NCBI GenBank assembly: GCA_041665385.1
Contig: JBAYIX010000001.1
Span: 47,865-111,864 of the forward strand
Length of the DNA stretch: 64,000 nucleotides
Reading direction: 5' to 3'
Origin: Minisyncoccota bacterium
Lineage (GTDB): Bacteria; Patescibacteriota; Minisyncoccia; Phycocordibacterales; PALSA-1337
How positions within the stretch are numbered: position 1 is the first letter of the stretch; every line of letters begins with the position of its first letter. The notes beneath the pieces were generated by a model, which was not told the DNA's origin, did not search any database, and worked only from the letters and a program-made list of their open reading frames with translations. Below, piece by piece: positions 14,363 through 63,450 of this stretch. The translations under genes and the position numbers were made by a program.

Positions 14363-14478
14363 TCGGTGTGAGGTGTGCACTACTTTGTTTTTGTTCAAAT
14401 TGAAGAGTTACCTCGAACTCTGCCCGTTGGTTTTTATCCAATTTGAACAAAAACAAAGTAGTGCACACCTCACACCGA
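14363..14478. repeat. hairpin element copy E1: 40-bp perfect inverted repeat with a 36-nt loop
   Basis: Left arm cggtgtgaggtgtgcactactttgtttttgttcaaattg is the exact reverse complement of the right arm. Loop aagagttacctcgaactctgcccgttggtttttatc. Ends 12 nt before the nusA start. Confidence 0.85.
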
Positions 14479-14489
14479 CAATAATCAAC

Positions 14490-15650
14490 ATGTTTGACTT
14501 AAAAGTAATCAATTCCGTCGTAGAACAACTCGAAGAAGAGCGCGGTATTCCCCGTGAAAAAACTCTCGAGGCTATTGCCATGTCTCTCGCTACGGCTTAC
14601 AAGAAAGAATTTGGCAAAAAAGGCCAGATAATAAGGGCTTCATTTGACGTGAACAGCGGCCAGGTAGAATTTTGGCAGGTAAAAGTCGTGGTAGACAGGG
14701 ACCAGGTCATCATGGAAGGAGACGAAGAGATGGCTCATGAGGAGATAAAGGATGCAAATGTCGACGATATCAAGATCCGTTTCAACCCGGAACAGCACAT
14801 GCTTTTCGAGGACGCTCAGAAGATAAAGAAGGATGCCGCCATCGGCGACGAGCTGGTATTCCCTCTAGAAGCAAAGGCAGACTTTGGACGCATAGCGGCA
14901 CAGACCGCAAAGCAGGTCATCATCCAAAAGATTCGCGAAGCAGAGAAAACTTCGGTTTTAGGTGAATTTGGCCAGAAGGAGGGCGAAATAGTAGCAGGGA
15001 CAGTAGAACGAGTAGAGAGAGGCGTAGTCTATATCAATATGGGCCGTGCTCTGGGCATGATCCCTTACGAAGAACAGATACCGAGTGAGCGCTGGAAAAC
15101 TGGCGACCGTATCCGTGCATACCTATATGCAGTAGAGGAGTCCCCTCGTGGCATCATGCTAAAGCTTTCCCGTGCTCATCCCAAGTTCCTGTCCAAACTC
15201 TTCGAGACCGAAACTCCGGAAATAGCGGCTGGAACTGTAGAGATCAAGGCCATCGCCCGCGAAGCGGGCTCACGCTCCAAGATCGCTGTCATATCTCACG
15301 ATCCTCATATCGACCCTATCGGTTCCATGGTCGGACAACGTGGGGTGCGTGTCTCGACGGTGACGAGCGAACTTTCTGGCGAAAAAATAGATATAGTAGA
15401 GTGGAATGAAGATCCTGCGCTGTTTATCGAGGAATCTCTCTCCCCTGCGGAAGTCGTCAGTCTGGAATTGATAGACGAAGAACATCGTGCAATTGTGACA
15501 GTGACAGAAGACGAACAATCCCTAGCTATCGGCAAGGGTGGTCAAAATGTCCGCCTCGCGGCCAAACTCACCGGCTGGAAGATAGATATAAAGTCTGCAG
15601 GAGGGAATGCGACTACAGGAGGTGATGAAGAAAAGGAGGCTACGAAATAA
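14490..15650 (+). CDS. nusA: transcription termination/antitermination factor NusA. Start at 14490; the ORF track extends upstream through the hairpin
   Basis: MFDLKVINSVVEQLEEERGIPREKTLEAIAMSLATAYKK, S1 domain and two KH domains (IGKGGQNVRLAAKLTGWKIDI). Confidence 0.9.
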   Translation: MFDLKVINSVVEQLEEERGIPREKTLEAIAMSLATAYKKEFGKKGQIIRASFDVNSGQVEFWQVKVVVDRDQVIMEGDEEMAHEEIKDANVDDIKIRFNPEQHMLFEDAQKIKKDAAIGDELVFPLEAKADFGRIAAQTAKQVIIQKIREAEKTSVLGEFGQKEGEIVAGTVERVERGVVYINMGRALGMIPYEEQIPSERWKTGDRIRAYLYAVEESPRGIMLKLSRAHPKFLSKLFETETPEIAAGTVEIKAIAREAGSRSKIAVISHDPHIDPIGSMVGQRGVRVSTVTSELSGEKIDIVEWNEDPALFIEESLSPAEVVSLELIDEEHRAIVTVTEDEQSLAIGKGGQNVRLAAKLTGWKIDIKSAGGNATTGGDEEKEATK

Positions 15651-15677
15651 GAACGAGTAAGGTTAGAAAGGCAAAAA

Positions 15678-15701
15678 AACCGCAGTAATAGCGGCTTTTT
15701 T
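15678..15701. terminator. weak bidirectional terminator between nusA (+) and the reverse transcriptase gene (-)
   Basis: aaaaaaaccgc-agtaata-gcggctttttt: a 4-bp GC stem flanked by an A-run and a T-run. Confidence 0.35.
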
Positions 15702-15708
15702 GTATGTT

Positions 15709-16719
15709 TTAATTTACTTTTGCTGATGCTTTTTCACGTAGAACTCTGAAACTTAACTTTCGGCAATTTCCATGACTCATTAGCCCTAGATACGAATTTG
15801 CCGACTTCTCTTTCCACTGATTCAAAATCAAATTCCTAAACATTCTTTTCTTGGTTGTTGTTCGCAGAACTCTGTGGTCCGGAAAATGCACCCACCCCAA
15901 AAAATCAACTCCTGAAGCAATCGTGGAAATAGAAACCTTATTTGGATGCATAGTAAGTCTCAACTTCTCTTCTAAAAAAGACTGCATCTTTGGCAAATGG
16001 CTTTCAAGATATGACCTGTTTTGCGACAACACGACAAAATCGTCAGCATAACGAATATAGTATTTTACTTTGAGCTTGTGCTTCACATATTGGTCAAACT
16101 CATTCATGTAGATATTCACGAGAAGTTGCGAGGTGAGGTTGCCGAGTGGGAGACCGACTCCTTTTGTACCAGAGTTGAAACTACTGACGATTTCAGAGAC
16201 GAGCCTCATAATGTCTCGGCCCGGGATATATTTGCCTATAATACTGAGTAGTATCGTCTGATCAATATTCGCAAAAAACTTTTTGATATCGCATTTGAGA
16301 ACCCATGTTGTACGAGTATTATTTTGCGAGACCGAACGAGAAAATTGCTCGAAACGCTTTAGTGCTCGATGTGTGCCCTTTCCGATCTGACATGAATGTG
16401 AATCCGATATAAATGTTTTTTTGAAAAATGGATAGAGAATGCGGTGTAAGGCATGGTTAACAAGCCTGTCTCGAACGCTCGCCTTATGAATATCCCGCGG
16501 CTTTGGGTCAGAAATCCTAAACGCCTGATATGCTGAATGCGAATATGTTTTTGTGGCAAGCTCGTGGTGAAGCAATATTATATTTGTCATCAAATCTCGC
16601 TCAAACCCTTGAACGTCTTTCCGCGCTCGCTTGTCGCACACAAATTCTTTCCATGCCAAAAGAAGATTTTCGAGAGAAATGATATCATTGTATGCATGTT
16701 GAAAAATAATTTTGGACAT
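15709..16719 (-). CDS. reverse transcriptase of a diversity-generating retroelement (DGR)
   Basis: RT motifs including YIRYADDFVVL (YxDD) and GLPLGNLTSQLLVNIYMNEFD. The [ILV]GxxxSQ motif, replacing the usual QGxxxSP, is the DGR-RT signature. Avd and a TR/VR pair lie adjacent. Confidence 0.88.
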   Translation of the reverse strand: MSKIIFQHAYNDIISLENLLLAWKEFVCDKRARKDVQGFERDLMTNIILLHHELATKTYSHSAYQAFRISDPKPRDIHKASVRDRLVNHALHRILYPFFKKTFISDSHSCQIGKGTHRALKRFEQFSRSVSQNNTRTTWVLKCDIKKFFANIDQTILLSIIGKYIPGRDIMRLVSEIVSSFNSGTKGVGLPLGNLTSQLLVNIYMNEFDQYVKHKLKVKYYIRYADDFVVLSQNRSYLESHLPKMQSFLEEKLRLTMHPNKVSISTIASGVDFLGWVHFPDHRVLRTTTKKRMFRNLILNQWKEKSANSYLGLMSHGNCRKLSFRVLREKASAKVN

Positions 16720-17136
16720 AAAGATAGCGTCAGTCAGTCAGTCAGTCAGTCAGTCAGTCAGTCAGTCAGTCAGTCAGTCAAGATTTTACCTGTTCTAAAT
16801 AAGGTAAAGAGTGCTTATCTGACATGGTACAGATTTTATCAAGATCTCCCGAAGACACATAGACATTCTATAGGACAGCGTATCGATACTTTGTTTGTTG
16901 AGCTGATAGAAGCGATATCGGCGGCAAGTTTCTTATCACGTGAGGAGAAACATCCGTATGTCAGACTAGCAATCAAAAAGCTCGATACCCTACGCGTACT
17001 TCTCATGATCCTTTGGGAAATAAAATCTTTTGATGACAAGAAATATATTACCCTTTCTGTAATGATTGATGAGGCTGGAAAAATGCTTGGTGGATGGAAC
17101 GGTCAGCTTACAAAACAAAACTCTCCCAAGAAATAG
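16696..17136 (+). CDS. avd: DGR accessory variability determinant (Avd-like four-helix-bundle protein). Start at ATG 16696 reading through the (GTCA)n tract is an inference
   Basis: The region after the repeat (PKTHRHSIGQRIDTLFVELIEAISAAS...LAIKKLDTLRVLLMILWEIKSFDDKKYITLSVMIDEAGKMLGGWNGQL) parallels Bordetella phage bAvd (PRKHGVAREMFLKCLLGQVELF...QVETAQVLIAEVGRILGSWIARV). There is no in-frame ATG between the repeat and this domain; the nearest upstream ATG is 16696, overlapping the RT start by 24 nt. Confidence 0.7.
   Translation: MLKNNFGHKDSVSQSVSQSVSQSVSQSVKILPVLNKVKSAYLTWYRFYQDLPKTHRHSIGQRIDTLFVELIEAISAASFLSREEKHPYVRLAIKKLDTLRVLLMILWEIKSFDDKKYITLSVMIDEAGKMLGGWNGQLTKQNSPKK
16729..16780. 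repeat. perfect tetranucleotide microsatellite (GTCA)x13
   Basis: gtcagtca... repeated 13 times without interruption. Lies 10-60 nt upstream of the RT start (minus strand) and inside the 5' end of the avd reading frame (plus strand), where it translates as (VSQS)n. Confidence 0.95.
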
Positions 17137-17154
17137 GGAGAGAAATGAAGTGAG

Positions 17155-17255
17155 TTGCGAACACCAGCGAACCACCAGTTGTCGTTCCAGTCGTTGTCGT
17201 TGCGGTTGACGTTCACCTTGCGCTTGTCGTTCCAACGGTTGAACGTGGCGTAGCA
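17155..17255 (-). repeat. DGR template repeat (TR)
   Basis: Non-coding; matches the 3' end of the downstream minus-strand target gene. All mismatches fall at minus-strand adenines of this copy (plus-strand T), e.g. ttg/cgg, tcg/ccg, ttc/agc. Blocks of 24, 18 and 18 nt are identical. Confidence 0.85.
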
Positions 17256-17642
17256 TTGTATGGAGTCTCGTCTATTTCACTGCCCCTCGAATACTCTCAG
17301 AGCTGTATCGAATCCGGCATCTCATTCAGCAGAATGACCTACTGGGTTTATGCCTTAAAACTCCATACCAAGTAGCTTCATTTTTTTGAAGTGTCTGCAT
17401 GCACCACCCTATCCAAAGCCTCATTTAGCAAAATGACCACTGGGTTGACCGTGGATACTCTCGATGCATGGATACTGGTTTCGGTAGCGGGAAGCCGTAA
17501 CCGCCCGCATATTCACCTACTGCCGGAATAAGTATAACTGGTTTTATATAAAAAAATTAGCCCCACATCCAAAATTAATTGAATGCAGGGCTAAGGACCA
17601 AGTTTCTAAGGACCGGAGTCCAAAGCGACTTAGTGTTGAGAA

Positions 17643-18275
17643 CTACTTGCGAACACCAGCGAACCACCAGCGGCCGAGCCAGCCGCCGCCCCAGCCGTCG
17701 CCGTTGCGGTTGACGTTCACCAGGCGCCCGCCGTCCCAACGGTTGAACGTGGCGAAGCACCAGTTGCCTTTGGCATCTTTCCAATGAGTGCCGTGGGGCT
17801 TCTCATCGGCGAAGGCGGGATCGGCTTCATTCACGGCGGCGACAGAGATCGGATCGACGGGCTTGAGACCACGCAGTTCGAACTCTTTTTCGAGGTCGTC
17901 ATCGGAGATGAAACCATTGCGGTTCGAGAGGTCGGGTTTGAAGAACACAACCTCGACTTCGTCGCCTTCACCTTTCGGCATCGCATCCACGACCTTGCGG
18001 TCCGTGTACTGCGCGCGGCCGGTGGCCTCGATCGCCTCTTGCGGAAAGCGACTACGATTCACCTTGATGGTGCGGACGATGAGGTTCGAGACCGCTTCAG
18101 CGCGTTCGCAGAAGGGCGTAAACATCATCATTCCGAGATTCTCGACGCCGAGAACCTGTTGAGCGACGTCCGAGGTGATCGAGGAGCGATGCTTGCGCAT
18201 CGCGTCGCGGAGTTTGTTGACGGCATTTTCGATTTGGCCGTCGGTCATTTCGGCTGCAGTCATGATCTGTGTCAT
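17643..18275 (-). CDS. DGR variable (target) protein with a C-terminal variable region, probably C-type lectin / FGE-like fold
   Basis: 210 aa. C-terminus ...HGTHWKDAKGNWCFATFNRWDGGRLVNVNRNGDGWGGGWLGRWWFAGVRK is encoded by the VR. GC content is visibly higher than surrounding genes. No obvious signal peptide. Confidence 0.75.
   Translation of the reverse strand: MTQIMTAAEMTDGQIENAVNKLRDAMRKHRSSITSDVAQQVLGVENLGMMMFTPFCERAEAVSNLIVRTIKVNRSRFPQEAIEATGRAQYTDRKVVDAMPKGEGDEVEVVFFKPDLSNRNGFISDDDLEKEFELRGLKPVDPISVAAVNEADPAFADEKPHGTHWKDAKGNWCFATFNRWDGGRLVNVNRNGDGWGGGWLGRWWFAGVRK
17647..17759 (-). repeat. DGR variable repeat (VR) at the 3' end of the target gene
   Basis: Direct repeat of the TR with substitutions only at TR adenines. 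It is 12 nt longer than the TR, with a (ccg/cag) expansion. It ends 1 nt from the target stop codon. The 24-nt identical 3' block ttgcgaacaccagcgaaccaccag is an IMH-like GC-rich segment. Confidence 0.85.
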
Positions 18276-18496
18276 GGTGTCATCCTTTCTTTTTGATTTC
18301 GACTTATATGTAAGAACTGTTCACAATAATTATACTCCTATTATCACCCATTGTCAATAGCTCCCGGTCCTGCCAAAATACCCCTATATTAAGCCCCAAT
18401 CATTGCATATTTGGCCCTTTTTTATTAGAATGCGCACATTGACAATTATTAGAAGGAAGACTAAAAGCCTCCCAAAAAGGGAGTAATAATACCAAA

Positions 18497-20518
18497 ATGA
18501 GCCCTTATATATGGTTCGCACTTATAAGTTCCGTAATCGCTATAGCATACGGCGCTTTTTTGATCACATCGATCTTGAAGAAGCCCACAGGCAATGACCG
18601 CATGAGAGAGATAGCCGCCGCCATCCAGGCAGGCGCAAAGGCGTATCTCAATCGCCAATATCGAACCATCGCCGTCATAGCAGTCATCCTATTCCTAATA
18701 CTCGGCTTTTTCCTAGGCTGGTCCATAGGCATAGGGTTCCTGGTAGGTGCTATCCTCTCTGCGCTTACAGGTTATATCGGTATGAATATATCGGTACGAA
18801 CAAACATAAGGACAGCCGAAGCAGCGAGGAGTGGCTTGGCTGAAGCTCTCTCTCTGGCATTCAAAGGCGGATCTGTGACCGGATTCTTCGTAGTTGGCTT
18901 GGCTCTCCTCGGAGTCACAGGCTTTTATGCCATCACAAAAGATGTAAACTCTCTCATCGGTTTGGCATTCGGAGCGAGTCTTATATCGATATTCGCCCGC
19001 CTAGGCGGAGGCATATTCACAAAGGCCGCTGATGTCGGCACCGATCTCGTAGGCAAATTAGAAGCAGGCATACCTGAAGATGATCCCAGAAACCCTGGTG
19101 TTATCGCAGACAACGTAGGCGACAATGTAGGAGACTGTGCTGGCATGGCAGCAGACTTGTTCGAGACCTATGCCGTCACCACCATAGCAGCCATGATACT
19201 CGGCGCGGTCACCTTCACACAGACTCTCGACGTTTCTGGTGTTGCAGTCAACGCAGTATTTGCAAATGCAACCATTTATCCTCTCGCTATAGGAGGTGTC
19301 GCCATCATCGCTTCTATCATAGGTACCTGGTTCGTAAAGCTCGGAAAAAGTGGAAACATAATGGGTGCAATGTACAAAGGACTCATAGCGGCTGGTGTCA
19401 TTTCTGCCATCGCTTTCTACCCCCTCACCATGGAACTCATGGCTGACAACAAACTCTACGATCCTACGAACTTGTACTACGCAACACTCGTCGGACTTCT
19501 CGTGACCGCAGCATTGGTATATATAACTGAATACTACACCTCCACCAAGTATCACCCAGTGCAATCCATAGCAAACGCGAGCGTTTCTGGTCACGGTACG
19601 AACATCATTCAGGGTCTGGCAATATCCATGAAAGCTACAGCATGGCCTACTCTGAGCATCGTTGCTGGAATATTGGCTGCATATCACTTCGGCGGACTCT
19701 ACGGTATAGCTATAGCCGCTATGAGTATGCTCTCTATGGCAGGTATCATAGTCGCTATCGACTCTTACGGTCCTATCACTGACAATGCCGGAGGCATAGC
19801 AGAGATGGCAGAACTACCAAAGGAGGTCCGTGATGTCACTGACCCATTGGATGCAGTCGGTAATACCACAAAAGCGGTCACAAAAGGATATGCCATCGGT
19901 TCCGCAGGGTTGGCGGCTCTGGTACTCTTTGCTTCCTATACAGAAGCAGTCGGTTCCGGGCACAGCTTTAGCCTCAATGATCCCGAAGTTATCGTCGGAT
20001 TGTTCATCGGAGGACTATTGCCTTACTATTTCGCAGCTCTCTGCATGGAAGCCGTAGGAAAAGCGGCTGGAAAAGTAGTAGAAGAAGTCAGGAGACAGTT
20101 CCGCGAGATCAAAGGCATCATGGATGGCTCTGCAAAGCCAGACTACAGCCGTGCGGTAGATATCGTGACTTCTGCAGCTATCAAGGAAATGATAGTTCCT
20201 GCTCTCATACCGGTTCTAGCACCTATATTGGTCGGATTTATACTCGGCCCAGTCGCTCTCGGAGGTTTGCTCGTCGGTTCCATTGTGACAGGCCTATTCG
20301 TAGCACTTTCTATGACTTCCGGAGGAGGAGCATGGGATAATGCAAAGAAACACATAGAGCAAGGTGCTCATGGAGGCAAGGGTTCGGATGCTCACAAAGC
20401 CGCTGTTACTGGCGACACCGTTGGAGATCCTTACAAAGACACAGCTGGCCCAGCCATAAACCCTATGATCAAGATCTTGAACATTGTGGCCCTGCTCATC
20501 GTCGCTTTCATTATTTAA
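18497..20518 (+). CDS. hppA: membrane-bound proton/sodium-translocating pyrophosphatase
   Basis: 673 aa polytopic membrane protein with [39 protein letters not shown] and [17 protein letters not shown] signature motifs. Confidence 0.9.
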
Positions 20519-20664
20519 TCCAGCTTAGCTAGGATTGTATGGAAAATAGTCACATTTCTGTGGCTATTTTCTTTTGAGCACTTTGCCCCCAAAAGTGCTA
20601 GACTATTCACAAGCCATGATCCACAGATATGGCTATTAATCCTAATAGAAATCACACCATTATA

Positions 20665-21450
20665 ATGAAAAAATTACAATATTCTCTCGCCATTCTAGCC
20701 ATAGTGCTCATAGGTACTCCGGCTTTGATACAGGCAGAGACAGATACAGATGCGAGTGTTTCTGCCAGCGCAGAAATAAAGGTCAGAAATACTCTTCGAG
20801 AAAAGATTAAAGCGGATATGGAGAACAAGGCAGAAAATGCCAAGAATAACCGTGACTATAGAAACTTAAAGCTAGCAGAATACGGAACTACATCTGCTAG
20901 GATCATGGCTACAGGCACACGTCCCATGCCGATCAGGGCCGCTTCCAGCACAATAAGAGTAAAGTTAGAAGAAAGGAGAGATGATAAGAAAGAGGAAAAA
21001 CAGGAAAAAAGAGAGGATCGGAGAGAAGATCGTCAGGAAAAGAGGATAGAGAAATTCCAAGAAGAAAGAGCTCACATAGTGAGACAACTCGAACAATCCA
21101 TATCAAACCTAAAGCAAGTCCAGACTAGGATACAAAGCCGGATCACAAAGGCAGAACAAGAAGGACTCAACATGACAGATGCCAAGACTTTGAATGTCAC
21201 AGCAACAACCAAGATAAATCTTGCAGTACAGGCAGTAGATGCACTCAAAATATTCGATGCATCCTCAAACGTATCGGCATCTAGTACGATAGACCTGAGC
21301 AAACCCCGAGAGCTTCTAAATACAGCTCGCCTATCTATAAAGACTGCTCGCGAAGCATTGAATGATGTTATCGTCTCCATAGCTCACACTATGGGATACA
21401 AACTTGGCGCAAAGATAAATGCCACCTCCACTGGATCTGTGAGTCAATAA
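20665..21450 (+). CDS. secreted coiled-coil protein with a highly charged KR/E-rich repeat (hypothetical)
   Basis: Signal peptide MKKLQYSLAILAIVLIGTPALIQA (start at internal Met; ORF track from 20629). Charged block RRDDKKEEKQEKREDRREDRQEKRIEKFQEER. Confidence 0.5.
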   Translation: MKKLQYSLAILAIVLIGTPALIQAETDTDASVSASAEIKVRNTLREKIKADMENKAENAKNNRDYRNLKLAEYGTTSARIMATGTRPMPIRAASSTIRVKLEERRDDKKEEKQEKREDRREDRQEKRIEKFQEERAHIVRQLEQSISNLKQVQTRIQSRITKAEQEGLNMTDAKTLNVTATTKINLAVQAVDALKIFDASSNVSASSTIDLSKPRELLNTARLSIKTAREALNDVIVSIAHTMGYKLGAKINATSTGSVSQ

Positions 21451-21474
21451 TCATTATTATAATAAATAACAAAA

Positions 21475-21804: not shown

Positions 21805-21876
21805 GTAGAGAAATATTTGTGAAAAAATGCAGCTCTAACGGGCTGCTTTTTTTGTTTGCAAATTTCAATTGCAGTA

Positions 21877-21992
21877 TCGGGCAAGCGAGGGATGTGCATT
21901 CTTTTCATAGAAATTGGAGAAAAACCAACCGGCTCTGTTCGTGGTAGCTCTTCAATTTCTATGAAAAGAATGCACATCCCTCGCTTGCCCGA
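21877..21992. repeat. hairpin element copy E2: 40-bp perfect inverted repeat with a 36-nt loop
   Basis: Arms cgggcaagcgagggatgtgcattcttttcatagaaattg and its exact complement. Loop gagaaaaaccaaccggctctgttcgtggtagctctt is closely similar to the reverse complement of the E1 loop. Sits about 50 nt upstream of tig. Confidence 0.85.
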
Positions 21993-22042
21993 GCCCCCAA
22001 CCAAAGTTGCACGATATCCACGATCAATGTAAACTCCCATTT

Positions 22043-23098: not shown

Positions 23099-23110
23099 GT
23101 TACAAAGATA

Positions 23111-24396: not shown

Positions 24397-24633
24397 GGTT
24401 TTGTGTTGGTTTTGTTTTTTATTACTTTCGTACTGTATCACGCATACGAAAATAGTCAACTAAAACTATACCACAATTACTGGACATTATCAGCTTATTC
24501 ATTATATGATGACAATGTTACCAATATTAAATTTTGAAACCGCTTCAACGGACCATGACACTCTTATTTATGATTAGATTTCCTCATACAATAGGTATAA
24601 AGCCATAGATCCAATACGGCGGTTCATCCGCAT

Positions 24634-28261: not shown

Positions 28262-28443
28262 TTTCGCACCGCAGGCACAGCAATGCAGTATCGGGACATT
28301 TGCAGTCCGAGCCGGATACAATGCATCTGCATATCTCTGCGAGGCGAGGACGAAACTAGCGCAAAATCCGCAACTGGCTTTCTGTAGTTGTTGCAGATTT
28401 TGAGCGTGTCCCGATACTGCATTGCTGTGCCTGCGGTGCGAAA
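28262..28443. repeat. 37-bp perfect inverted repeat enclosing a 108-nt structured loop, between tRNA-Trp and tRNA-Arg
   Basis: Left arm tttcgcaccgcaggcacagcaatgcagtatcgggaca is the exact reverse complement of the right arm (28407-28443). The loop contains further small hairpins. Shares the 15-mer caatgcagtatcggg with the left flank of hairpin element E2. Confidence 0.8.
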
Positions 28444-28556: not shown

Positions 28557-30074
28557 ATGAAATCGAATCTATGTTATTCTAGTGCAATGGAAGGATCTCA
28601 CCAAACAACTATTCCCTTGCAGGTCATAAGCGCCATTGAAACCCTAGAAAAGGCAGGTTTCAAGGCATATCTCGTCGGTGGATCGGTCCGCGACTTGCTA
28701 CTTGGCAAAAAACCCAAAGACTGGGATATTACGACAAACGCAAAACCCGAACAAATTCAAGGTTTGTTTACAAAAACTGTCTATGAAAACGTTTACGGCA
28801 CAGTAGCTGTCATAGACGAAACTACAGAAGATATTTCACTAAAAAGTATTGAGATTACCCCATTTCGATTGGAATCCGACTATAGCGATAGACGTCATCC
28901 TGACCAAGTAAAGTTTAGTGATAAGATCGAAGATGATCTAAAAAGACGAGACTTCACAATAAATGCGATTGCGGTGTCCTTATCCAATGGCGCTATAAAG
29001 GACATAATTGACCTTTACAGTGGTTTCCAAGACATAAAAGACAAAACTATCAGAACAGTAGGAGATGCCGCATCTAGGTTCAACGAGGACGCCCTACGCA
29101 TGATGCGTGCTATACGACTGGCTGTAGAATTGGGTTTCACCATAGATAAGAACACTCTAGACGGCATAAAAATGAACAGTAATCTCTTGAAGGAAGTATC
29201 TATAGAACGTATTCGTGATGAGTTTACAAAGATAATCCTATCCGAACAGCCAAAAAGCGGTATTGAGCTGATGCAAAGCGCTGGTTTGTTGTTTCACGTG
29301 ACACCTGAGCTCGAAAAAGCCATAGGAGTAGGCCAAAACCAAGCCCATGCCTACGATGTTTGGGAACATCTACTACGTAGTCTGCAATGTGCGGCAGATA
29401 AAGACTGGAGCTTGGAAATACGTTTGGCTGCCCTTTTTCACGATATTTCAAAGCCAAAGACCAAAGGTCTTTCACGTGAAACAGGTATCATCACCTTTTA
29501 TGGCCATGAAATGGCTGGTTCACGTGAAACACGTAAAATATTAGAAAGAATGCGCTTTTCACGTGAAATCATCGAAATAGTCGTAAAACTGGTTAGATGG
29601 CACATGTTTTTCTCAGATACCGAGGTTGTTACCCTCTCTGCTGTTCGCCGTATGATCGCAAACGTCGGCAAAGACCTAATATGGGATCTAATGGACTTGC
29701 GGGTCTGTGATAGAGTCGGTACTGGTCGCCCAAAGGAAAATCCATACAGACTCCGTAAGTACAAGGCTATGGTGGAAGAAGCACTCAAGGACCCAGTATC
29801 CGTCAGTATGTTGAAAATCGATGGTAATAGAATAATGGAAATTTGCAATATTAAACCTGGACCCAAAATTGGATTTATTCTACATGCACTATTCAATGAA
29901 GTGCTCGATGATCCAAAACTAAACACGGCAGAACAACTGGAAAAACGAGCAGAAGAATTGATAGTAATTGACGATAATACGTTGAGAACTATGGGTGAAT
30001 CTGGAAAAGATCGCAAAGAGGAGGAGGAAGAAAAGAGCGTAAAGGAAATAAGGGACAAGTACCATGTCCAATAA
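28557..30074 (+). CDS. cca: CCA-adding tRNA nucleotidyltransferase with HD domain
   Basis: Pol-beta-like NTase head (GGSVRDLLLGKKPKDWDITT), RLAALFHDISKP HD motif, 505 aa. Confidence 0.85.
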   Translation: MKSNLCYSSAMEGSHQTTIPLQVISAIETLEKAGFKAYLVGGSVRDLLLGKKPKDWDITTNAKPEQIQGLFTKTVYENVYGTVAVIDETTEDISLKSIEITPFRLESDYSDRRHPDQVKFSDKIEDDLKRRDFTINAIAVSLSNGAIKDIIDLYSGFQDIKDKTIRTVGDAASRFNEDALRMMRAIRLAVELGFTIDKNTLDGIKMNSNLLKEVSIERIRDEFTKIILSEQPKSGIELMQSAGLLFHVTPELEKAIGVGQNQAHAYDVWEHLLRSLQCAADKDWSLEIRLAALFHDISKPKTKGLSRETGIITFYGHEMAGSRETRKILERMRFSREIIEIVVKLVRWHMFFSDTEVVTLSAVRRMIANVGKDLIWDLMDLRVCDRVGTGRPKENPYRLRKYKAMVEEALKDPVSVSMLKIDGNRIMEICNIKPGPKIGFILHALFNEVLDDPKLNTAEQLEKRAEELIVIDDNTLRTMGESGKDRKEEEEEKSVKEIRDKYHVQ

Positions 30075-56697: not shown

Positions 56698-56725
56698 GAA
56701 CTATACACCGTTTCTACCAAAAAAA

Positions 56726-57064
56726 CTAACTTTTTGATATTTTTGCCTTTATGAACAATTCCTGAACATCTTTGGCTATATCTGCAAGCTCTATTTCGGA
56801 AATATCTTTCTTTATGAAGAGAGCCCCCCATATTCCTGGTATTATGACAGCCATTAGCGGTCTTATCGCTGCATATATTCGGCGCCTATTACGATTCCTC
56901 ACTACAGCAGTCTTTGCTATCTTTTTGGGGGCAACGGCAGATATACGTGTGTCTACCTGACCAGAAACGAATCTCAATAAAAAAAGGGTAGAGTGAGCCA
57001 CCCTTCCTTTTTCCATCACTATATCAAACTGTTTTGTTGTCAGTCTTTGCGACTTTGCTAACAT
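56726..57064 (-). CDS. rnpA: ribonuclease P protein component
   Basis: 112 aa basic protein, MLAKSQRLTTKQFDIVMEKGR...RNRNRRRIYAAIR (RNR motif), immediately downstream of rpmH. Confidence 0.85.
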   Translation of the reverse strand: MLAKSQRLTTKQFDIVMEKGRVAHSTLFLLRFVSGQVDTRISAVAPKKIAKTAVVRNRNRRRIYAAIRPLMAVIIPGIWGALFIKKDISEIELADIAKDVQELFIKAKISKS

Positions 57065-57066
57065 TT

Positions 57067-57204
57067 TTAGGAGACGGACACTTTCTTGCGTCCGCGAGCA
57101 CGCCTTCTAGCCACTATTTTGCGGCCTCCAGGACTCTTCATCCTCATGCGAAATCCGTGCGCCTTGGCACGCTTCCTCTTGTTTGGGTGGTAAGTGAATG
57201 ACAT
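57067..57204 (-). CDS. rpmH: 50S ribosomal protein L34 (not in the ORF track; under 60 aa)
   Basis: Manual translation gives [45 protein letters not shown] (45 aa), matching the L34 consensus (KRTFQPS..KR..HGFR.RM.T..GR.VL.RRR.KGR..L). Confidence 0.85.
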
Positions 57205-57247
57205 GATTGATGAAGTATTGCATGGTTTTATTTTATTGGCAAGTTTT

Positions 57248-57365
57248 TGCCTCCCGAGCCGGCAGTGTGCTCCTTTTGTTCCTTTTGAAATAGTTGTGCA
57301 GGGTTCGAGTAATCATAAAAGCTCACAAAAGGAACAAAAGGAGCACACTGCCGGCTCGGGAGGCA
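57248..57365. repeat. hairpin element copy E3: 40-bp perfect inverted repeat with a 38-nt loop, in the rpmH-dnaA spacer
   Basis: Arms gcctcccgagccggcagtgtgctccttttgttccttttg and its exact complement. Loop aaatagttgtgcagggttcgagtaatcataaaagctca has the family core GGGTTCGAGTAATC. A DnaA-box-like tcatccaca follows about 60 nt downstream. Confidence 0.85.
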
Positions 57366-57465
57366 CCAACTCACAACACAAAAAATGTTCTCCACAGCTT
57401 ATCAACATATTTACAGCTCATCCACAAGTTCCCATATTTATAAACAGGTATATACTGTAAAAACG

Positions 57466-58812
57466 ATGAATGATTTTTCTCAAATCTGGCAGACAGCTCT
57501 GATAGAGATGCAATCTATAGTTTCTCCTGCAAATTATTCCACCTGGGTAAAGTCTACTAGGATCATCCGTGAAGAAGAGGGTGTCATATATCTCGGCGTA
57601 CCCAACGAATTTACCCGCGAATGGCTATTCAAGAAGTGTCACAACTCCATTTTGCGCATATTGAGACAACTCAATGAACATGTCCGGGCTTTGGAGTACA
57701 TAGTTCTAAAGGAGGAGGAAGAAAAACAAGACCAGCTCAGGAAAAAGGCATTTATGGCCCCTACTATCTCCATGCCTTTGCAAGATTTCTACATAAACAA
57801 AGAAGATAATCTCAATCCCCGCTACACCTTCGACAACTTTATCATCGGACCCTTCAACGACTTGGCTCACGCAGCCTCTTCTATGGTGGTAAAGAGTCCT
57901 GGTCATGTCTATAACCCACTATTCATATACGGTGGAACTGGCCGTGGCAAAACACACCTCATACAGGCAGTAGGGAACAAGATCAAAAGCCTTTTTCCAA
58001 ATAAAAAAGTCTTTTATTTGACTGCGGAGCGTTTCGGCTCTGAGTTTTTCGAATCCTTACAAAACAGCACGGCTCAACAATTCAAGGAAAGGTATCGCAA
58101 ATACGATGTCCTCATAATGGACGATGTCCAATTCTTCTCTAGCAAAGAAAAGTTCCAAGAAGAACTGTTCCACCTATTCAATACATTCCACGATACGGCC
58201 CGCCAGTTGGTATTTTCTTCCGACAAGCACCCGAATGTCATCCCAAACCTCGAGGATCGTATACGTGGCCGCTTTGCCGCAGGGATGATCGTAGATATAG
58301 CTGAACTCGACAAGGAATCCCGCATGGCAATAGTCAAAACCAAATGTAAACCTCACAATATCACTCTTACAGAAGAAATCGTCGATTATCTGGCGACAGA
58401 AATCGAAGATAATATCCGGGAGATAGAAGGGATAGTGAATATTATTGCTCACCAAACAATGCACAAGTCGCGCGAACTCAATATAAACGAAATAAAAAAC
58501 ATCCTGAAAAACAACGCAAAACCAAAAAAGATGCTGTCTGTAAAGGATGTAGTAAAAACGGTTTGTGACTTTTACAATATAGAAGAGGAGAGTATATACA
58601 ACAAAACCCGCAGAAAAGAAGTAGTGAAACCCCGACAAGTCGTCATGTATATACTCCGAGAAGATTTCAACATCTCTTTTCCTTCCATTGGAGACAAACT
58701 CGGGGGGAGGGATCATACTACCGTTATTCATTCCTATGAAAAAGTAAAGGAAGATATAAAAACAAACTCTGTTTTGTCGCAGGAGATACTTCAGCTCCGG
58801 ACTATGTTATAA
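57466..58812 (+). CDS. dnaA: chromosomal replication initiator protein DnaA (start at internal Met; ORF track from 57385)
   Basis: N-terminal domain I, AAA+ Walker A GGTGRGKTHL, Walker B VLIMDDVQF, sensor motifs and C-terminal DNA-binding domain (REDFNISFPSIGDKLGGRDHTTVIHSYEKV). Confidence 0.92.
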   Translation: MNDFSQIWQTALIEMQSIVSPANYSTWVKSTRIIREEEGVIYLGVPNEFTREWLFKKCHNSILRILRQLNEHVRALEYIVLKEEEEKQDQLRKKAFMAPTISMPLQDFYINKEDNLNPRYTFDNFIIGPFNDLAHAASSMVVKSPGHVYNPLFIYGGTGRGKTHLIQAVGNKIKSLFPNKKVFYLTAERFGSEFFESLQNSTAQQFKERYRKYDVLIMDDVQFFSSKEKFQEELFHLFNTFHDTARQLVFSSDKHPNVIPNLEDRIRGRFAAGMIVDIAELDKESRMAIVKTKCKPHNITLTEEIVDYLATEIEDNIREIEGIVNIIAHQTMHKSRELNINEIKNILKNNAKPKKMLSVKDVVKTVCDFYNIEEESIYNKTRRKEVVKPRQVVMYILREDFNISFPSIGDKLGGRDHTTVIHSYEKVKEDIKTNSVLSQEILQLRTML

Positions 58813-59055
58813 CTGTGAATATCCTTGTTGATAGTTTGTGAATAAGTACCAGAAACCTGGTGATAAAATAAGTACAAAAACCCAAAAATAAAATTACCGA
58901 TACTAATATACACCTTATGAACAAAACAAAATGGAATAAAAAAACCAAAAGACAAGCAAGTAAAAGGTTTATAAACTTTTCAACTTATCCACAGGACTAA
59001 TAATAACTATGGAGTTTTATATAAAAAAATAACTTATTAATTATTACGAACTAAC
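58813..59055. promoter_or_regulatory. putative oriC / DnaA-box region between dnaA and dnaN
   Basis: AT-rich 243-bp spacer. It contains TTATCCACA (about 58985-58993, perfect), TTATTCACA (reverse complement of tgtgaataa at about 58837-58845) and ATATTCACA (about 58815-58823), plus A/T tracts suitable as an unwinding element. Confidence 0.5.
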
Positions 59056-60165
59056 ATGAAAACTGAGCTGAGATTCCAAGAGCTAAGGAAAGCGGTTGCT
59101 ATGACCGAGAGGGTTGCTGGTAAGCATATGACTCTACCAGTCTTATCTTGTCTTCTTTTTGAAATAAAGAAAAACTCTTTGGTGATCAAGGCAACAAATT
59201 TGGATATCGGGGTGGAGGTACATGTTGCCGCAAAATCTGAAGCAGAAGAAACCGTGGCTGTGCCAGCAGCTGTCCTGAGCTCTTTTCTCGGCCAGATAGC
59301 AGAATATGACGGTGTGGCAAGTTTAGAAATATCCTCGGGCAATATGATAATTCAGGCGGCAAAGTCGAGGGGTGTAATAAAAACAGTTCCTCATGAGGAT
59401 TTCCCCAGTATACCAGTAGTCACAGAAGGACAAGAGATCATTATGTCCGCGGATATTTTGATAAAAGGCCTCAAGGCGGTGTGGTATAGCGCCTCACTCT
59501 CTAGTGTAAAACCGGAATTATCTAGTGTGTATATGTACACTATGAATAATGAGCTTGTGTTTGTTGCTACAGATTCTTTCCGCTTGGCAGAAAAGAGAGT
59601 TCGAACTGACGAAAAGGCAAATATCAAGGAGATTCTCATACCATTTAAAAATATAGCCGATATGACGAGGATATTAGAGACATTGAAAGATAAAGCCTCA
59701 GTATATGTGAGTAAAAATATGATCTCATTTGAAGTAAAAAACAAACTGAGGGTTGTGTCTCGCGTCATAGATGGAATCTTTCCAGACTATAAACAAATAA
59801 TCCCCAAGGGGTATGTGACAGAAGTGGTGGTGCTAAAGCAAGATTTGCTAAATGCCCTAAAAATATCAAATGTTTTCTCTGACAAGTTCAACCAGGTTCA
59901 TTTTACTCTAGATCCGAAGGGTAAATTGTTTGAAATACAGACAAAAAACAGCGATATAGGCGAAAATAAAACAGCGATTGATGCCGCAATAACTGGAGAA
60001 AAGATTGAGATAAATTTCAATTACAAGTATATAGTAGACTGCTTCCAGTCTATAGATGCTGATAGTATGACTCTACAACTTTCCGGCATGAATAGACCAA
60101 TGGTCATAAGGCCTGTTTCTGGCGATCAGAGCTTCATGTATCTGGTGATGCCAATGAATAGGTAA
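59056..60165 (+). CDS. dnaN: DNA polymerase III beta sliding clamp
   Basis: 369 aa, three-domain clamp. MKTELRFQELRKAVAMTERVA...ATDSFRLAEK...MNRPMVIRP. Confidence 0.9.
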   Translation: MKTELRFQELRKAVAMTERVAGKHMTLPVLSCLLFEIKKNSLVIKATNLDIGVEVHVAAKSEAEETVAVPAAVLSSFLGQIAEYDGVASLEISSGNMIIQAAKSRGVIKTVPHEDFPSIPVVTEGQEIIMSADILIKGLKAVWYSASLSSVKPELSSVYMYTMNNELVFVATDSFRLAEKRVRTDEKANIKEILIPFKNIADMTRILETLKDKASVYVSKNMISFEVKNKLRVVSRVIDGIFPDYKQIIPKGYVTEVVVLKQDLLNALKISNVFSDKFNQVHFTLDPKGKLFEIQTKNSDIGENKTAIDAAITGEKIEINFNYKYIVDCFQSIDADSMTLQLSGMNRPMVIRPVSGDQSFMYLVMPMNR

Positions 60166-60169
60166 CATA

Positions 60170-60430
60170 ATGTTCAATATTAGCCAATTTCTAAAGAGGG
60201 CCACTGGTAAACAGGGTAGGGAGCTCTATTTCCGTAAATCCATTCAAGATCTTTTGAAAGAAAGGTTTGATCTTGAGGTGCCCTTCGAGATGATATCCTT
60301 GAAGTCTGGCACGATCTATATAAAAAATATTCCCCAATCTGCTCGAACTTCTATTTTTATAAAAAAGACAGCTATACTTCAGGAGATAAATAGAATCCAA
60401 GATATATATGTAATACTAGACGTAAGATAA
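60170..60430 (+). CDS. DUF721/DciA-like small protein (possible replicative helicase loader)
   Basis: 86 aa immediately after dnaN. VPFEMISLKSGTIYIKNIPQSARTSIFIKKTAILQEINR fits the DUF721 pattern (G.L.v.v.s...a.eL......il..ln). Position is typical for dciA. Confidence 0.45.
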   Translation: MFNISQFLKRATGKQGRELYFRKSIQDLLKERFDLEVPFEMISLKSGTIYIKNIPQSARTSIFIKKTAILQEINRIQDIYVILDVR

Positions 60431-60521
60431 TAGGAATTATCCACAGTTTTATTTTGTTGCAAAATTGTCCATGCTTTGTTACAAATGAAGCACCAAATTA
60501 TAAGAGATTAATTTTTGAGTT

Positions 60522-60782
60522 ATGCCGACTAAAACTCAGTCAAAAAAAATCAATACAACTCGCCAAACAAAGCCGAGTTCTGAGAAGGAAGAGGAAGAGA
60601 TTGTAATCACAAAAAAATCTAGTACGAAACCAATCGAGATAGAAGAAACCGATATTATAATAGCTGAAGTAGAAAAACCGGTTGATGATGTGGTTACCGA
60701 GGATGGTGAAGTGGAGGAAGTAGAAGAAGCAGGTCTCAATGAAGAGGACCTTGATCCGTTCGGTGACAAATGGGAACAATAA
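60522..60782 (+). CDS. small highly acidic protein (hypothetical)
   Basis: 86 aa, Glu/Asp-rich C-terminal half (EEVEEAGLNEEDLDPFGDKWEQ). No known domain. Confidence 0.35.
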   Translation: MPTKTQSKKINTTRQTKPSSEKEEEEIVITKKSSTKPIEIEETDIIIAEVEKPVDDVVTEDGEVEEVEEAGLNEEDLDPFGDKWEQ

Positions 60783-60807
60783 ATAAACTCTGATATACTG
60801 GGGTTTC

Positions 60808-63333
60808 ATGAGTCGTCGCCATTCTAATATAAAGGTAATAAAAGGCTTTATCCTCCTTTCTATGTCTGGAGTTTTTTTGGTGGTCGGTGGATCTGCTTTG
60901 TGGGTCGCTACACTAAAGATGCCCGACCTCAATGCTTTTGAGAATAGAAAGGTCTCTCAATCAACAAAAATTTTTGATCGTACCGGAAGTGTACTTCTCT
61001 ATGACCTTAATACAGATGTAAAAAGAACCATAGTTAGTCTCGCGAGTACCTCACCTCTGGTGCAAAAGGCAACTATCGCCATCGAAGATGCGGAGTTTTA
61101 TACACATATGGGCATACGGCCAACTGCCATTATCCGTGCGGTTCTCGCCGACATACTCGCTGGAGATAAGACTCAGGGCGGCTCTACCATAACTCAACAA
61201 GTAGTAAAAAACTCTCTTTTAACAAAAGACAAAACAGTCACCAGAAAAATAAAAGAGTGGGTGCTCGCCATAAAGTTGGAGAAAATAATGACCAAAAACC
61301 AGATATTGGAAACATATCTGAATGAGGTTCCTTATGGTGGCACAATATACGGTATAGAAGAAGCCAGCCAAGCCTTTTTTGGCAAGCCGGCTACAAGCTT
61401 GACCTTGGCGGAGGCGGCATATCTTGCGGCGGTGCCGCAGGCACCTACTTACTATTCACCCTATGGCACACATAGGGACGCTTTGGATGCACGCAAAAAT
61501 CTGGTGCTTTCGAGAATGAAATCTCTAAATATGATAACAAAGGAAGAATATCAAGTCGCATCGGAGGAAAAAGTTCAATTCCTTTCCAAAAACAATGCCG
61601 GCATAAAGGCTCCACACTTTGTCATGATGGTTCGCGATTATTTGTCCCAAAAATACGGCGACGAGGCGGTGAATGAAGGTCTAAAAGTTATCACTACGCT
61701 CGATTTCGAAATGCAAAAGAAAGCCGAAGCTGTCGTGGATAAATTTGCACCTTCTCTCGCAACAAACTTTAATGCTAGTAATACTGCAATTGTTGCAATC
61801 GATCCCAAAACAGGGGATATATTGACCCTGGTAGGATCTAGAGATTATTTTAGCCAAGATATAGATGGCAATTATAATATTGCTCTGGCATTACGTCAGC
61901 CAGGCTCCACATTCAAACCTTTCGTCTACGCGACGGCTTTCAAACAAGGCTATACTCCAAATACAGTACTTTTCGATGTGCCGACACAGTTTTCCACACA
62001 GTGTGCCCCTGACGGAAAGCCCAACAATCCTACGGCAGATCCCAAAAAAGTTTGTTATTCTCCTCAGGAATTTGATGATTTGTATCCTGGACCCATGATC
62101 ATGCGTTTTGCTCTGGCTCAGTCACGCAATATTCCTGCGGTCAAAACCCTCTATCTCTCTGGGGTGGCAGAATCTATGCAGACAGCGGAAGACCTCGGCA
62201 TAACAACTCTCACTGACCCAAATCGCTACGGACTCACACTCGTTCTCGGTGGCGGTGAAGTCAGATTACTCGACTTGGTCAGTGCCTACGGTGTATTTGC
62301 GAATGATGGAGTGCGCAATACGCATCGTTCTGTGTTGGAAGTTTATGACAATGAAGGTAATGTCCTCGAAAAAGTATCAACCAATCCCAAAGAAGCCATA
62401 GAGCCGGAGATAGCCAGACAAATATCCGACATACTATCTGATACTAGTGTGCGTATGAATAGTCTCAAACCTATAGCAGAGGGTGTCGGCAGGCCCGTCG
62501 CCATAAAGACAGGTACGACGAACGATTATCGCGATGTTTGGACTGTCGGTTATACTCCGAACCTGGTAGTCGGTGCATGGGCAGGGAACAGTGACAATAC
62601 TCCGATGGAGCACAACGTAGCTGGTCTCATAATATCTCCTTTGTGGGGGGCGTTCATGTCACAAGCAGTAAAGGAACTGCCAAAGGAAAATTTCAAACCG
62701 CCTCCACCAGAGACGAACGAGAGCAAGCCAAGCCTCCACGGAATATGGGAAGGAGGTGTGTCCTATTGGAAAGATAGTGTTTCGGGCAAGCTAGCCACGG
62801 AATATACGCCTCCGGAAGCAAAAAAAGAAGTTGTCTTCAATAGTGTCCATACCATTCTGCATTGGCTGGACAAGAAAAATCCCACCGGCCCAGCACCTCT
62901 GCGTCCACAAGACGATTCCCAATATGCAAACTGGGAGTTCGCTGTGAGAAAGTGGTTCGTAGAATACCAAAAACTAAACCCAAGCTTTATCGAACAGACA
63001 AAGATAGAGATACCGAAAGAGAAAGATGATGTGCATACTCCGGAAAAATCTCCAAAAGTCACCATAGTTTCACCTCCGGACAATTCCCTCATCAATCCTC
63101 AGGGTCAATTAACAGTACAACTGACTTCGACAGGAGGCTTTCCGGCGCAAAAAACTGAGGTTTATGTGAATGGAAAGTATGTGATGACAGCTACGAGCAA
63201 TCCTCTCAATTTCTCCTTTATTCCTGCGGATGTGGGGAATCTGACTTCAAATAATACATTGTCAGTAATACTGTATGATAGTGTTTTGAATAAGGCACAA
63301 GCAGTCGCAAACTTTACTGTAAGTACTCAATAA
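60808..63333 (+). CDS. mrcA: penicillin-binding protein 1A (bifunctional transglycosylase/transpeptidase)
   Basis: N-terminal transmembrane anchor, GT51 motifs (EDAEFYTHMGI, GGSTITQQVVKN) and transpeptidase motifs (STFKPF, SRN, KTGTT). 841 aa. Confidence 0.9.
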   Translation: MSRRHSNIKVIKGFILLSMSGVFLVVGGSALWVATLKMPDLNAFENRKVSQSTKIFDRTGSVLLYDLNTDVKRTIVSLASTSPLVQKATIAIEDAEFYTHMGIRPTAIIRAVLADILAGDKTQGGSTITQQVVKNSLLTKDKTVTRKIKEWVLAIKLEKIMTKNQILETYLNEVPYGGTIYGIEEASQAFFGKPATSLTLAEAAYLAAVPQAPTYYSPYGTHRDALDARKNLVLSRMKSLNMITKEEYQVASEEKVQFLSKNNAGIKAPHFVMMVRDYLSQKYGDEAVNEGLKVITTLDFEMQKKAEAVVDKFAPSLATNFNASNTAIVAIDPKTGDILTLVGSRDYFSQDIDGNYNIALALRQPGSTFKPFVYATAFKQGYTPNTVLFDVPTQFSTQCAPDGKPNNPTADPKKVCYSPQEFDDLYPGPMIMRFALAQSRNIPAVKTLYLSGVAESMQTAEDLGITTLTDPNRYGLTLVLGGGEVRLLDLVSAYGVFANDGVRNTHRSVLEVYDNEGNVLEKVSTNPKEAIEPEIARQISDILSDTSVRMNSLKPIAEGVGRPVAIKTGTTNDYRDVWTVGYTPNLVVGAWAGNSDNTPMEHNVAGLIISPLWGAFMSQAVKELPKENFKPPPPETNESKPSLHGIWEGGVSYWKDSVSGKLATEYTPPEAKKEVVFNSVHTILHWLDKKNPTGPAPLRPQDDSQYANWEFAVRKWFVEYQKLNPSFIEQTKIEIPKEKDDVHTPEKSPKVTIVSPPDNSLINPQGQLTVQLTSTGGFPAQKTEVYVNGKYVMTATSNPLNFSFIPADVGNLTSNNTLSVILYDSVLNKAQAVANFTVSTQ

Positions 63334-63339
63334 TTACGA

Positions 63340-63450
63340 GCAAGCAATGAGCAAAACTTCCTTTTTGTCGGATTTGAGAAGTTGTGCAATGTCCGGGTAA
63401 TCATAAGAGCTCGCAAATCCGACAAAAAGGAAGTTTTGCTCATTGCTTGC
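63340..63450. repeat. hairpin element copy E4: 37-bp perfect inverted repeat with a 37-nt loop
   Basis: Arms gcaagcaatgagcaaaacttcctttttgtcggatttg and its exact complement. Loop agaagttgtgcaatgtccgggtaatcataagagctcg is about 80 percent identical to the E3 loop. Lies between the PBP1a stop and the ruvC stop. Confidence 0.85.

Follow-up and report, generated by a model that had tools for sequence, protein, structure and literature searches.

Hairpins of the window and their surroundings

This work concerns a family of long hairpins that lie between the genes of a Minisyncoccota bacterium (Patescibacteriota) represented by a metagenome-assembled genome, in a stretch of 64,000 nucleotides of contig JBAYIX010000001.1 (assembly GCA_041665385.1, positions 47,865 to 111,864 of the forward strand) that is called the window from here on. 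The first of them, E1, stands between a pilB-like gene on the minus strand and nusA on the plus strand, its end 11 nt from the nusA ATG. A canonical terminator precedes E2 by 30 nt and the start of tig follows it at a distance of about 50 nt. E3 occupies the spacer between rpmH and dnaA, directly upstream of the DnaA boxes (57388-57407). E4 is located between the convergent genes for PBP1a and ruvC and overlaps the last codons of ruvC: the stop codon, the last two codons (K, Q) and part of the preceding Arg codon all belong to its right arm, and the ruvC tail that is seen in a relative has been replaced, not copied, by this arm. A further copy, E5, which the preliminary description of this DNA had overlooked, separates tRNA-Gly(gcc) from tRNA-Arg(tcg). 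Together with E6, outside the window on the same contig, this makes six copies of 111-182 nt each in 83 kb of this genome (Table 1). No credible open reading frame (ORF) was found inside any of the six; only spurious ones run across them.

Table 1. Position and make-up of the six hairpin elements (window positions unless another locus is named)
Element	Position	Arms	Perfect stem	Loop or interior	Loop type and strand	Place
E1	14363-14478	14363-14402 and 14439-14478	40 bp	14403-14438, 36 nt	A, minus	
E2	21877-21992	21877-21916 and 21953-21992	40 bp	21917-21952, 36 nt	A, plus	
E3	57248-57365	57248-57287 and 57326-57365	40 bp	57288-57325, 38 nt	B, plus	
E4	63340-63450	63340-63376 and 63414-63450	37 bp	63377-63413, 37 nt	B, plus	
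E5	28262-28443	28262-28298 and 28407-28443	37 bp	interior, 108 nt		
E6	L157 19597-19708		38 bp	36 nt		same contig, 6.4 kb left of window position 1; upstream of fusA

The preliminary description had reported four hairpins with exact Watson-Crick stems of 37-40 bp and loops of 36-38 nt, and when the arms of E1-E4 were re-derived the 157 stem pairs indeed contained no mismatch and no G-T pair; the stem of E2 can be lengthened to 44 bp if one G-T pair is allowed. When the whole window was scanned exhaustively for perfect stems, with 14 bp as the minimum, E1-E4 and E5 were returned, after which the longest stem was a terminator of 16 bp. The chance of a perfect 40-bp stem is about 1e-24 per position, and the folding z-scores were between -12.7 and -18 on both strands. 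Two subfamilies of loops can be distinguished: E2 and E1, the latter read on the minus strand, make up A, and E3 and E4 make up B. The members of B are 79% identical, very near the 80% given before, but those of A, which had been called near-identical in opposite orientation, share only 81%, and the proposed common loop core GCAG(R)GTTCGAG(G)TAA(Y)C describes E1 and E3 but not E2 and E4, where several positions differ. The view that the arms differ substantially between copies was correct: the arms of E1-E4 are 41-59% identical, with 29 of 37 stem columns variable. Short arm motifs (GAG, TGTGC, CTTTT) recur in the window and in its relatives.

The two remaining copies depart from this scheme. 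The loop of E6 is intermediate, beginning like the B type and ending like the A type. The interior of E5 can be aligned with E2 (z=3.6) and looks like a decayed A-type copy; its perfect outer 37 bp include sequence which beside E2 is unpaired flank, and this indicates that the perfectly paired zone can shift outward. Small G+C-rich hairpins are found 14-31 nt from E1 (14316-14334), E2 (21829-21846) and E6 (L157, about 19722-19740), the first two flagged by a terminator scan and the third seen by eye in the flank. The elements may insert preferentially next to terminators, or the arrangement may simply be the usual one for intergenic DNA.

Inverted duplications are a known class of artefact, for instance from chimeric fold-back reads, and an origin during assembly or amplification had to be considered. 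The window is 100% identical to the ENA contig ERZ27249449:k141_1377396, and JGI metagenome contigs of the same strain (99.96-100% identical) are continuous through E2 and E3. The Logan contigs of a third data set, SRR6484324, end inside the arms of E1, E2 and E3, as is expected where repeats exceed the k-mer of the assembler. The continuity of E2 and E3 in an independent assembly shows that the hairpins are real. The same hairpins were thus recovered for this strain in independent projects (ENA, JGI, SRA), identical hairpins of relatives recur in three JGI metagenomes (L107-109) and in the Hainich wells H41 and H51 (L047 and L091), and the hairpins lie mid-contig, strictly between genes and with conserved loops, unlike artefacts. 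We therefore give this explanation practically no weight.

Presence, absence and movement in related genomes

Relatives were compared over 80 genome loci and 59 metagenome loci centred on dnaA, 2.1 Mb in total, and are named below by locus number where needed. By their DnaA they are all Patescibacteria, of the candidate phyla radiation (CPR), and belong to the Paceibacteria group (labels 'Taylorbacteria' and Paceibacterota), the closest DnaA being 91% identical. With a criterion of at least 24 paired bases and a loop of at least 30 nt, 47 distinct hairpins were found, 42 of them perfect, with 7 mismatches over 1541 stem positions; a scan that tolerated mismatches added just a handful of imperfect hairpins, so that decayed copies are few. 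Their stems measure 24-42 bp; their loops form two length groups, 33-66 nt and about 75-135 nt, and in the longer group an older, decayed copy is nested inside. The A and B loop sequences themselves are confined to this species and one B-like copy in its nearest relative, L002. Searches with nhmmer using A, B and combined A+B profiles gave no extra copy except this L002 element, which was already part of the combined profile, and a metagenome scan with an A-loop pattern gave 0 matches. The preliminary description had allowed that the copies might be without counterparts in relatives, and this holds for the A and B loops, bar the one L002 copy, but not for the architecture, which is widespread. 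These results suggest a sequence family that is young or fast-changing within an architecture that is clade-wide.

The gene context could be classified for 40 of the hairpins: 13 stand between divergent genes, mostly rpmH and dnaA, 12 between convergent and 11 between tandem genes, and the 4 that appeared to be inside genes are crossed by spurious ORFs, so that all credible cases are intergenic. Many fill nearly the entire gap. About a dozen genomes have a hairpin between rpmH and the DnaA boxes, with unrelated sequences and at slightly different insertion points, and this spacer upstream of dnaA is thus an insertion hot spot. Of the striking placement that had been noted earlier, it is this position that recurs, whereas nusA and tig are not recurrent partners. 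Orthology between the dnaA-upstream hairpins of L014 and L036 is only suggestive (z=2.5). At the same hot spot, L017 (5838-5894) and L068 (1678-1734) carry a perfect palindrome of 57 nt, with arms of 28 bp, a centre of 1 nt and no loop module. It may represent an element now without its loop, or else a palindromic site that is not occupied.

The cumulative GC skew of the window has its minimum at rpmH-dnaA (56-58 kb). Here the annotated N-terminus of DnaA (57385-57466) is a translation of the DnaA boxes TTCTCCACA and TTATCAACA (57388-57407), whose conservation in relatives is at the DNA level. The alignment of most relatives to DnaA starts at residues 22-28 and an independent gene call begins at M28 (57466), so the true start of dnaA is probably 57466 and the annotated N-terminus is probably not protein.

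Comparison of corresponding sites revealed that whole hairpins are present in one genome and missing in the next. E3 is missing in L002, in which about 10 nt separate the alignable flanks; this genome carries a B-like element of its own, 115 nt long, between dnaN and the following gene, a place that is empty in the window, and a different hairpin at the position of E4. Two hairpins upstream of dnaA in L034 are both cleanly missing in L023, and the hairpin of L014 and L036 is missing in L037 and L044. The most informative pair is L047 and L091, which are about 98% identical (97.8-98.2% depending on the method) over 21 kb. Both contain one and the same element, at sites that lie 47 nt from each other; each strain is empty at the site of the other, and each copy is flanked by a perfect direct repeat of 8 bp (GATAATTC and AACATTTC, respectively). 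Among the 47 hairpins, perfect 8-bp flanking repeats were observed for three (those of L047 and L091 and the one designated L002c) where 0.14 would be expected by chance. The relocation over 47 nt, the duplications and the empty sites demonstrate that the hairpin moves as a whole, arms and loop together, and that in these relatives it transposes with an 8-bp target-site duplication. By extension from these genomes the copies of the window are presumably mobile as well.

Conserved loops and drifting arms

Wherever related copies could be compared, the loop was the conserved part and the arms were the variable part. In the paralogues of L006, loops of 95 nt are about 94% identical while the arms cannot be aligned beyond a T-rich pattern, with conservation dropping from the loop to the inner arm and again to the outer arm. 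L107 and L126, which are 83% identical overall, have a hairpin at the same position upstream of dnaA; its loop is identical at 56 of 56 positions and its arms at about 65%, so that the arms are largely randomised, and in L107 the stem has an outer imperfect extension on both sides that is lacking in L126. A third kind of loop, the C type, consists of two mini-hairpins. Here 8 of 18 pairs have changed on both sides, compared with 2.7 in shuffled alignments (none of 500 shuffles reached 8); some G-U pairs are present and slid controls collapse. A covariance model of the C type has 12 members in distant genomes, each held between perfect arms of 10-38 bp that are unrelated to one another. These compensatory changes imply that the loop is a selected, structured module whose helices evolve as those of selected structures usually do.

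The long arms do not show this compensatory and G-U behaviour. Among about 1500 arm pairs there is not one G-U or G-T pair, and differences in arm length are mirrored between the two sides. The elements of L047 and L091 differ at four mirrored positions in the arms and at two in the loop; third codon positions have diverged by 3.9% and the remaining intergenic DNA by 0.9%, and four changes in 34 arm positions are compatible with drift of the arm sequence at about the neutral rate. Hypermutation of the arms was rejected on the same third-codon yardstick, which the four mirrored changes in 34 bp fit. The perfection of the arms is not simply a sign of youth: the pair of duplicated target sites, 16 nt in all, is a five-fold smaller mutational target than the arms, and yet no trace of it could be detected in 44 of the 47 copies, whose arms are intact. 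The loop can also lie either way round. With the asymmetric termini AAC..TCC as reference, the loops of L047 and L091 point in opposite directions; loop orientation also differs between E1 and E2 and between the two copies of L037 (L037a and L037b). Over all hairpins the first arm, read 5' to 3' on either strand, has 15% T in its outer half and 40% T in its inner half. This T asymmetry is real, but the terminator scan does not flag the arms of the E elements, and arms as built-in terminators were rejected. The elements as wholes were not flagged either, and canonical terminators stand separately beside E1 and E2, which disposes of the intrinsic terminator.

Two possible sources of the arm sequence were also rejected. 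The arms are not copies of other sequence, whether spacer-like or antisense, as they had no match elsewhere in 1.3 Mb of loci. Nor do they derive from the flank of the insertion site, given that empty sites lack both arms and that E4 replaces the 3' end of ruvC; an apparent similarity between L036 and L037 vanished on realignment.

Proposed explanation and its alternatives

The explanation that we favour, by a modest balance of probability, is that E1-E6 are copies of a lineage-specific, non-coding, mobile element of the foldback type, similar to miniature inverted-repeat transposable elements (MITEs), which occurs in Paceibacteria and has a conserved structured loop and self-correcting arms. 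The family is apparently undescribed. A loop module of 33-66 nt would be under selection while arms of 24-42 bp would be free to drift, and the loop may be the recognition structure for a mobilising activity supplied in trans, or it may serve a function of the host. One arm would serve as the template for the other, and in this way complementarity would be regained at the DNA level. If selection on pairing were the only cause, the arms would change more slowly and G-U intermediates would remain, and for this reason we infer fast arm-to-arm copying of DNA rather than selection at the RNA level; the lack of G-T pairs, the mirrored insertions and deletions and the loops in both orientations would all follow from it. 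Three routes may be considered: intrastrand template switching could take place when the hairpin is replicated, the inverted arms could recombine, with inversion of the loop as a further consequence, or one arm could be synthesised anew by fold-back in the course of transposition, as in the terminal hairpins of parvoviruses. Template switching would be the simplest known mechanism for the behaviour of the arms. In E. coli, where the process is known as quasipalindrome correction, it perfects inverted repeats and mirrors changes between them, including insertions and deletions, although it is known as a mechanism of mutational hot spots and not as a system that maintains a mobile family.

Several observations weigh against this explanation. 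The mobility of E1-E4 is judged from presence and absence relative to a genome of about 75% nucleotide identity, and no flanking duplication could be detected at any of E1-E6. No transposase or other mobilising enzyme was found among the Pfam-labelled genes on 83 kb of the source contig, several genes of which carry no label. Copies differ at their outer ends, and this fits poorly with a classical DDE transposase that recognises ends. The strict conservation of the loop at the apparently orthologous site of L107 and L126 suits a host function better than a purely selfish element. The argument for arm copying comes from the evolutionary pattern, and all the sampled DNA lies within about 65 kb of the replication origin.

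One alternative is a function in the host, either as RNA or as DNA. The element could be transcribed, its duplex cut by RNase III and its loop released as a small RNA or acting in cis, with mobility secondary and the perfection of the arms a side effect at the DNA level. Such a function is favoured by the strong conservation of the loop modules and by their structure, which includes compensatory changes and some G-U pairs workable on one strand only, and likewise by a loop that is identical at 56 of 56 positions at 83% genome identity. E1, E2, E3 and E6 are in 5' leaders, E5 is in the spacer of a tRNA operon, and five of six C-type modules are co-oriented with the neighbouring gene. Nevertheless, the orientation of the loop relative to genes is inconsistent, E1 being opposite to E2 and one C-type module antisense to both of its neighbours, and many copies lie between convergent genes. 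Zero G-U pairs among about 1500 arm pairs is also difficult to explain at the RNA level, and the elements have no promoter or terminator signature and no Rfam match. At gathering thresholds Rfam identified only the 4 tRNAs in the window and nothing in the loci of seven relatives; in E-value mode E3 gave only generic models of miRNA precursors, below threshold and on both strands. We regard a host-functional RNA as unlikely. Less likely again is a site acting as DNA, a single-stranded hairpin or a cruciform with a part in replication, in priming or in the organisation of the chromosome close to the origin. Strict Watson-Crick pairing fits a DNA structure, the position just upstream of the DnaA-box cluster recurs in about a dozen genomes, and the GC-skew minimum falls at rpmH-dnaA. 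But most relatives have no hairpin there and very close relatives differ in its presence, further copies are located 6-64 kb from the origin beside unrelated genes, and a central spacer of at least 36 nt makes the extrusion of a cruciform from duplex DNA unlikely.

It is also conceivable that only the loop module is mobile or exchangeable, entering palindromes of the host by insertion or gene conversion, or that the arms are built locally, once the module has inserted, by inverted copying of the flank. This would account for near-identical loops between unrelated arms in L006, for the graded conservation from loop to inner and outer arm among paralogues, and for the loop-less 57-nt palindrome at the hot spot in L017 and L068; the perfect stem of E5, which takes in sequence like the flank of E2, and the outer imperfect extension of L107, absent on both sides in L126, agree with it too. 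However, in the one transposition observed, that of L047 and L091, the arms moved with the loop, neither arm is present at the empty sites of relatives, and at E4 the native C-terminus of ruvC was replaced and not copied by the arm. In our estimate this stands behind the host-functional RNA but ahead of the DNA site. An invertible genetic switch, in which a recombinase flips the loop and so changes the expression of a neighbouring gene, could be imagined from loops in both orientations, one of which is turned round with respect to its termini. No promoter-like signal is present in loops of 36 nt, a length that does not suffice for conventional synapsis, each locus has a single orientation across conspecific assemblies, and in the regions examined no recombinase gene adjoins any copy, so a switch is very improbable.

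Beyond the mobile foldback element that we favour, a bolder proposal may be put forward with considerable doubt, namely that these hairpins form a class of their own among prokaryotic mobile elements, new in that recognition of the ends depends on structure and not on sequence. The mobilising machinery would read the conserved loop module, T- or Y-shaped and presented by a perfect duplex of about 30-42 bp. One arm would be re-made from the other, by fold-back or in a manner like a rolling hairpin, during transposition or replication. Neutral drift of the arms, mirrored insertions and deletions, a flipping loop and complementarity that does not decay would follow, and the mobilising activity may come from replication or repair enzymes of the host rather than from a dedicated transposase.

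Several known systems share features with the family. MITEs and foldback elements include Correia, RUP and Nezha in bacteria and Foldback in eukaryotes; their terminal inverted repeats are conserved, being read by a transposase, and old copies decay into imperfect hairpins. The elements described here resemble them in being small, non-coding, multi-copy and intergenic, consisting almost wholly of inverted repeat, with insertion polymorphism and, in fresh copies of relatives, an 8-bp duplication, and their terminal repeats of 37-40 bp are 100% complementary. They differ in that the arms vary between copies (41-59% identity in the window, unalignable in L006) while the loop is conserved, in that the arms remain perfect after the duplication has eroded, and in that a parent insertion sequence was not found among the labelled genes of the 83 kb. 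The earlier proposal of a MITE-like origin at the DNA level is supported by the presence and absence of whole hairpins among relatives and by the 47-nt relocation with its 8-bp duplications, and that of upkeep at the DNA level, rather than only as RNA, by arms that are perfect despite near-neutral divergence. Target-site duplications, which it suggested looking for around each copy, could not be detected at the six elements of this genome, and its comparison with repetitive extragenic palindromic (REP) elements is not supported. REP arms are short, imperfect and conserved in sequence over hundreds of copies, whereas their spacers vary, and HUH-type transposition leaves no duplication. There is a likeness in that both are extragenic repeats that form hairpins, often between convergent genes, and REPs are mobilised in trans. 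REP and REPIN elements and their RAYT transposases are treated in PMC3479197. The present elements are not REP-like because it is the hairpin arms that vary and the loops that are conserved, and no RAYT-like Pfam label was found in the regions of the contig examined.

The inverted terminal repeats of parvoviruses, including adeno-associated virus, are T-shaped hairpins with loops in flip and flop orientations at the ends of linear single-stranded DNA genomes; they need the Rep nickase, and their arms are perfect because they are re-copied at every replication. A stem of about 40 bp capped by two mini-hairpins, as in the C type, and a loop in both orientations recall this arrangement, and parvoviral re-copying is a possible analogue of the arm copying proposed above. 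Here, though, the elements are internal chromosomal insertions with duplications, without a Rep gene and without a related viral match. A phage origin was rejected, as three of four pattern scans of viral contigs were without a match and the fourth gave 9, all of them chance matches in GC-rich coding regions of phages. The attC sites of integrons have imperfect stems with obligatory extrahelical bases, conserved R and L boxes at the base and variable loops, and stand in cassette arrays next to an integrase. They too form a family defined by hairpin structure with highly variable stem sequence, and are recombined as single-stranded DNA. The present hairpins are not attC-like because their stems are perfect and lack a conserved motif at the base, the copies are dispersed and single, and there is no integrase nearby. 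Finally, the repetitive hairpin-forming elements (RHE) of organelle genomes, reported from sponge mitochondria (PMC2800124), are small repeats that have entered the intergenic DNA of a compact genome again and again and for which no transposase is known; in these respects they resemble the hairpins here, but RHE are much shorter. Full-text searching of the literature found no description of such elements in CPR bacteria.

Other features and wider meaning

Some further features of the window and its relatives deserve mention. A complete-looking diversity-generating retroelement occupies 15709-18275, with a reverse transcriptase gene (15709-16719, minus strand), a template repeat at about 17155-17255 and a variable repeat that occupies about 17647-17759, in the 3'-terminal part of an ORF on the minus strand (17643-18275). 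The differences between its repeats are all at T on the plus strand, that is, at A on the coding strand, and a match to a bAvd-like domain lies on the opposite strand in an ORF at 16537-17136 (plus strand). A link between this retroelement and the hairpins was rejected, since its repeats are elsewhere and the arm differences are not adenine-specific. A palindrome that contains TTCACGTGAAAC occurs twice, at 29467-29484 and 29515-29532, 48 nt apart and about 28 kb from the putative origin; it may be parS-like, to judge by the ParB-binding consensus. Between 50066 and 56697 (L156 1-5136), directly to the left of rnpA and yidC, a gene cluster has matches to a TraG-like P-loop domain and to the T4SS-pilin Pfam family and also encodes several unlabelled proteins, and two PilB-like T2SSE ATPases are encoded elsewhere on the contig, away from this cluster.

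Two other repeat families were encountered in the relatives. A short repeat, TGTCATTCCCGCGAAAGCGGGAATC, is present at several positions each in L004, L005, L007, L022/L088, L084, L085 and L110; it is a small palindrome, arranged in inverted pairs, whose sequence is conserved from one genome to another, and is thus REP-like and unlike the hairpin elements. The other family is a hairpin found 9-10 kb downstream of dnaA in three distant genomes, L105 (19168-19337), L116 (19445-19617) and L120 (20090-20258). Its stem of 25-26 bp contains 1-2 mismatches, its loop is about 120 nt long and its arms are similar in sequence among the three; from this pattern it behaves like a conserved structured RNA rather than a mobile hairpin.

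For work on these genomes the hairpins have practical consequences. Perfect inverted repeats of 30-42 bp break short-read assemblies, and the hairpins create spurious ORFs and false N- and C-termini, as with ruvC and dnaA. For their biology, the ultra-small CPR bacteria have tiny, streamlined genomes that are thought to be poor in mobile elements, and six copies in 83 kb, if representative of the whole genome, would amount to a hairpin every 14 kb or so and a notable exception to this view. The pattern of conservation is the opposite of that in MITEs and REPINs and points to arm-to-arm copying at the DNA level in natural populations. The family could serve as a natural system in which to study the upkeep of long inverted repeats, the recognition of hairpin DNA and movement without an obvious transposase.

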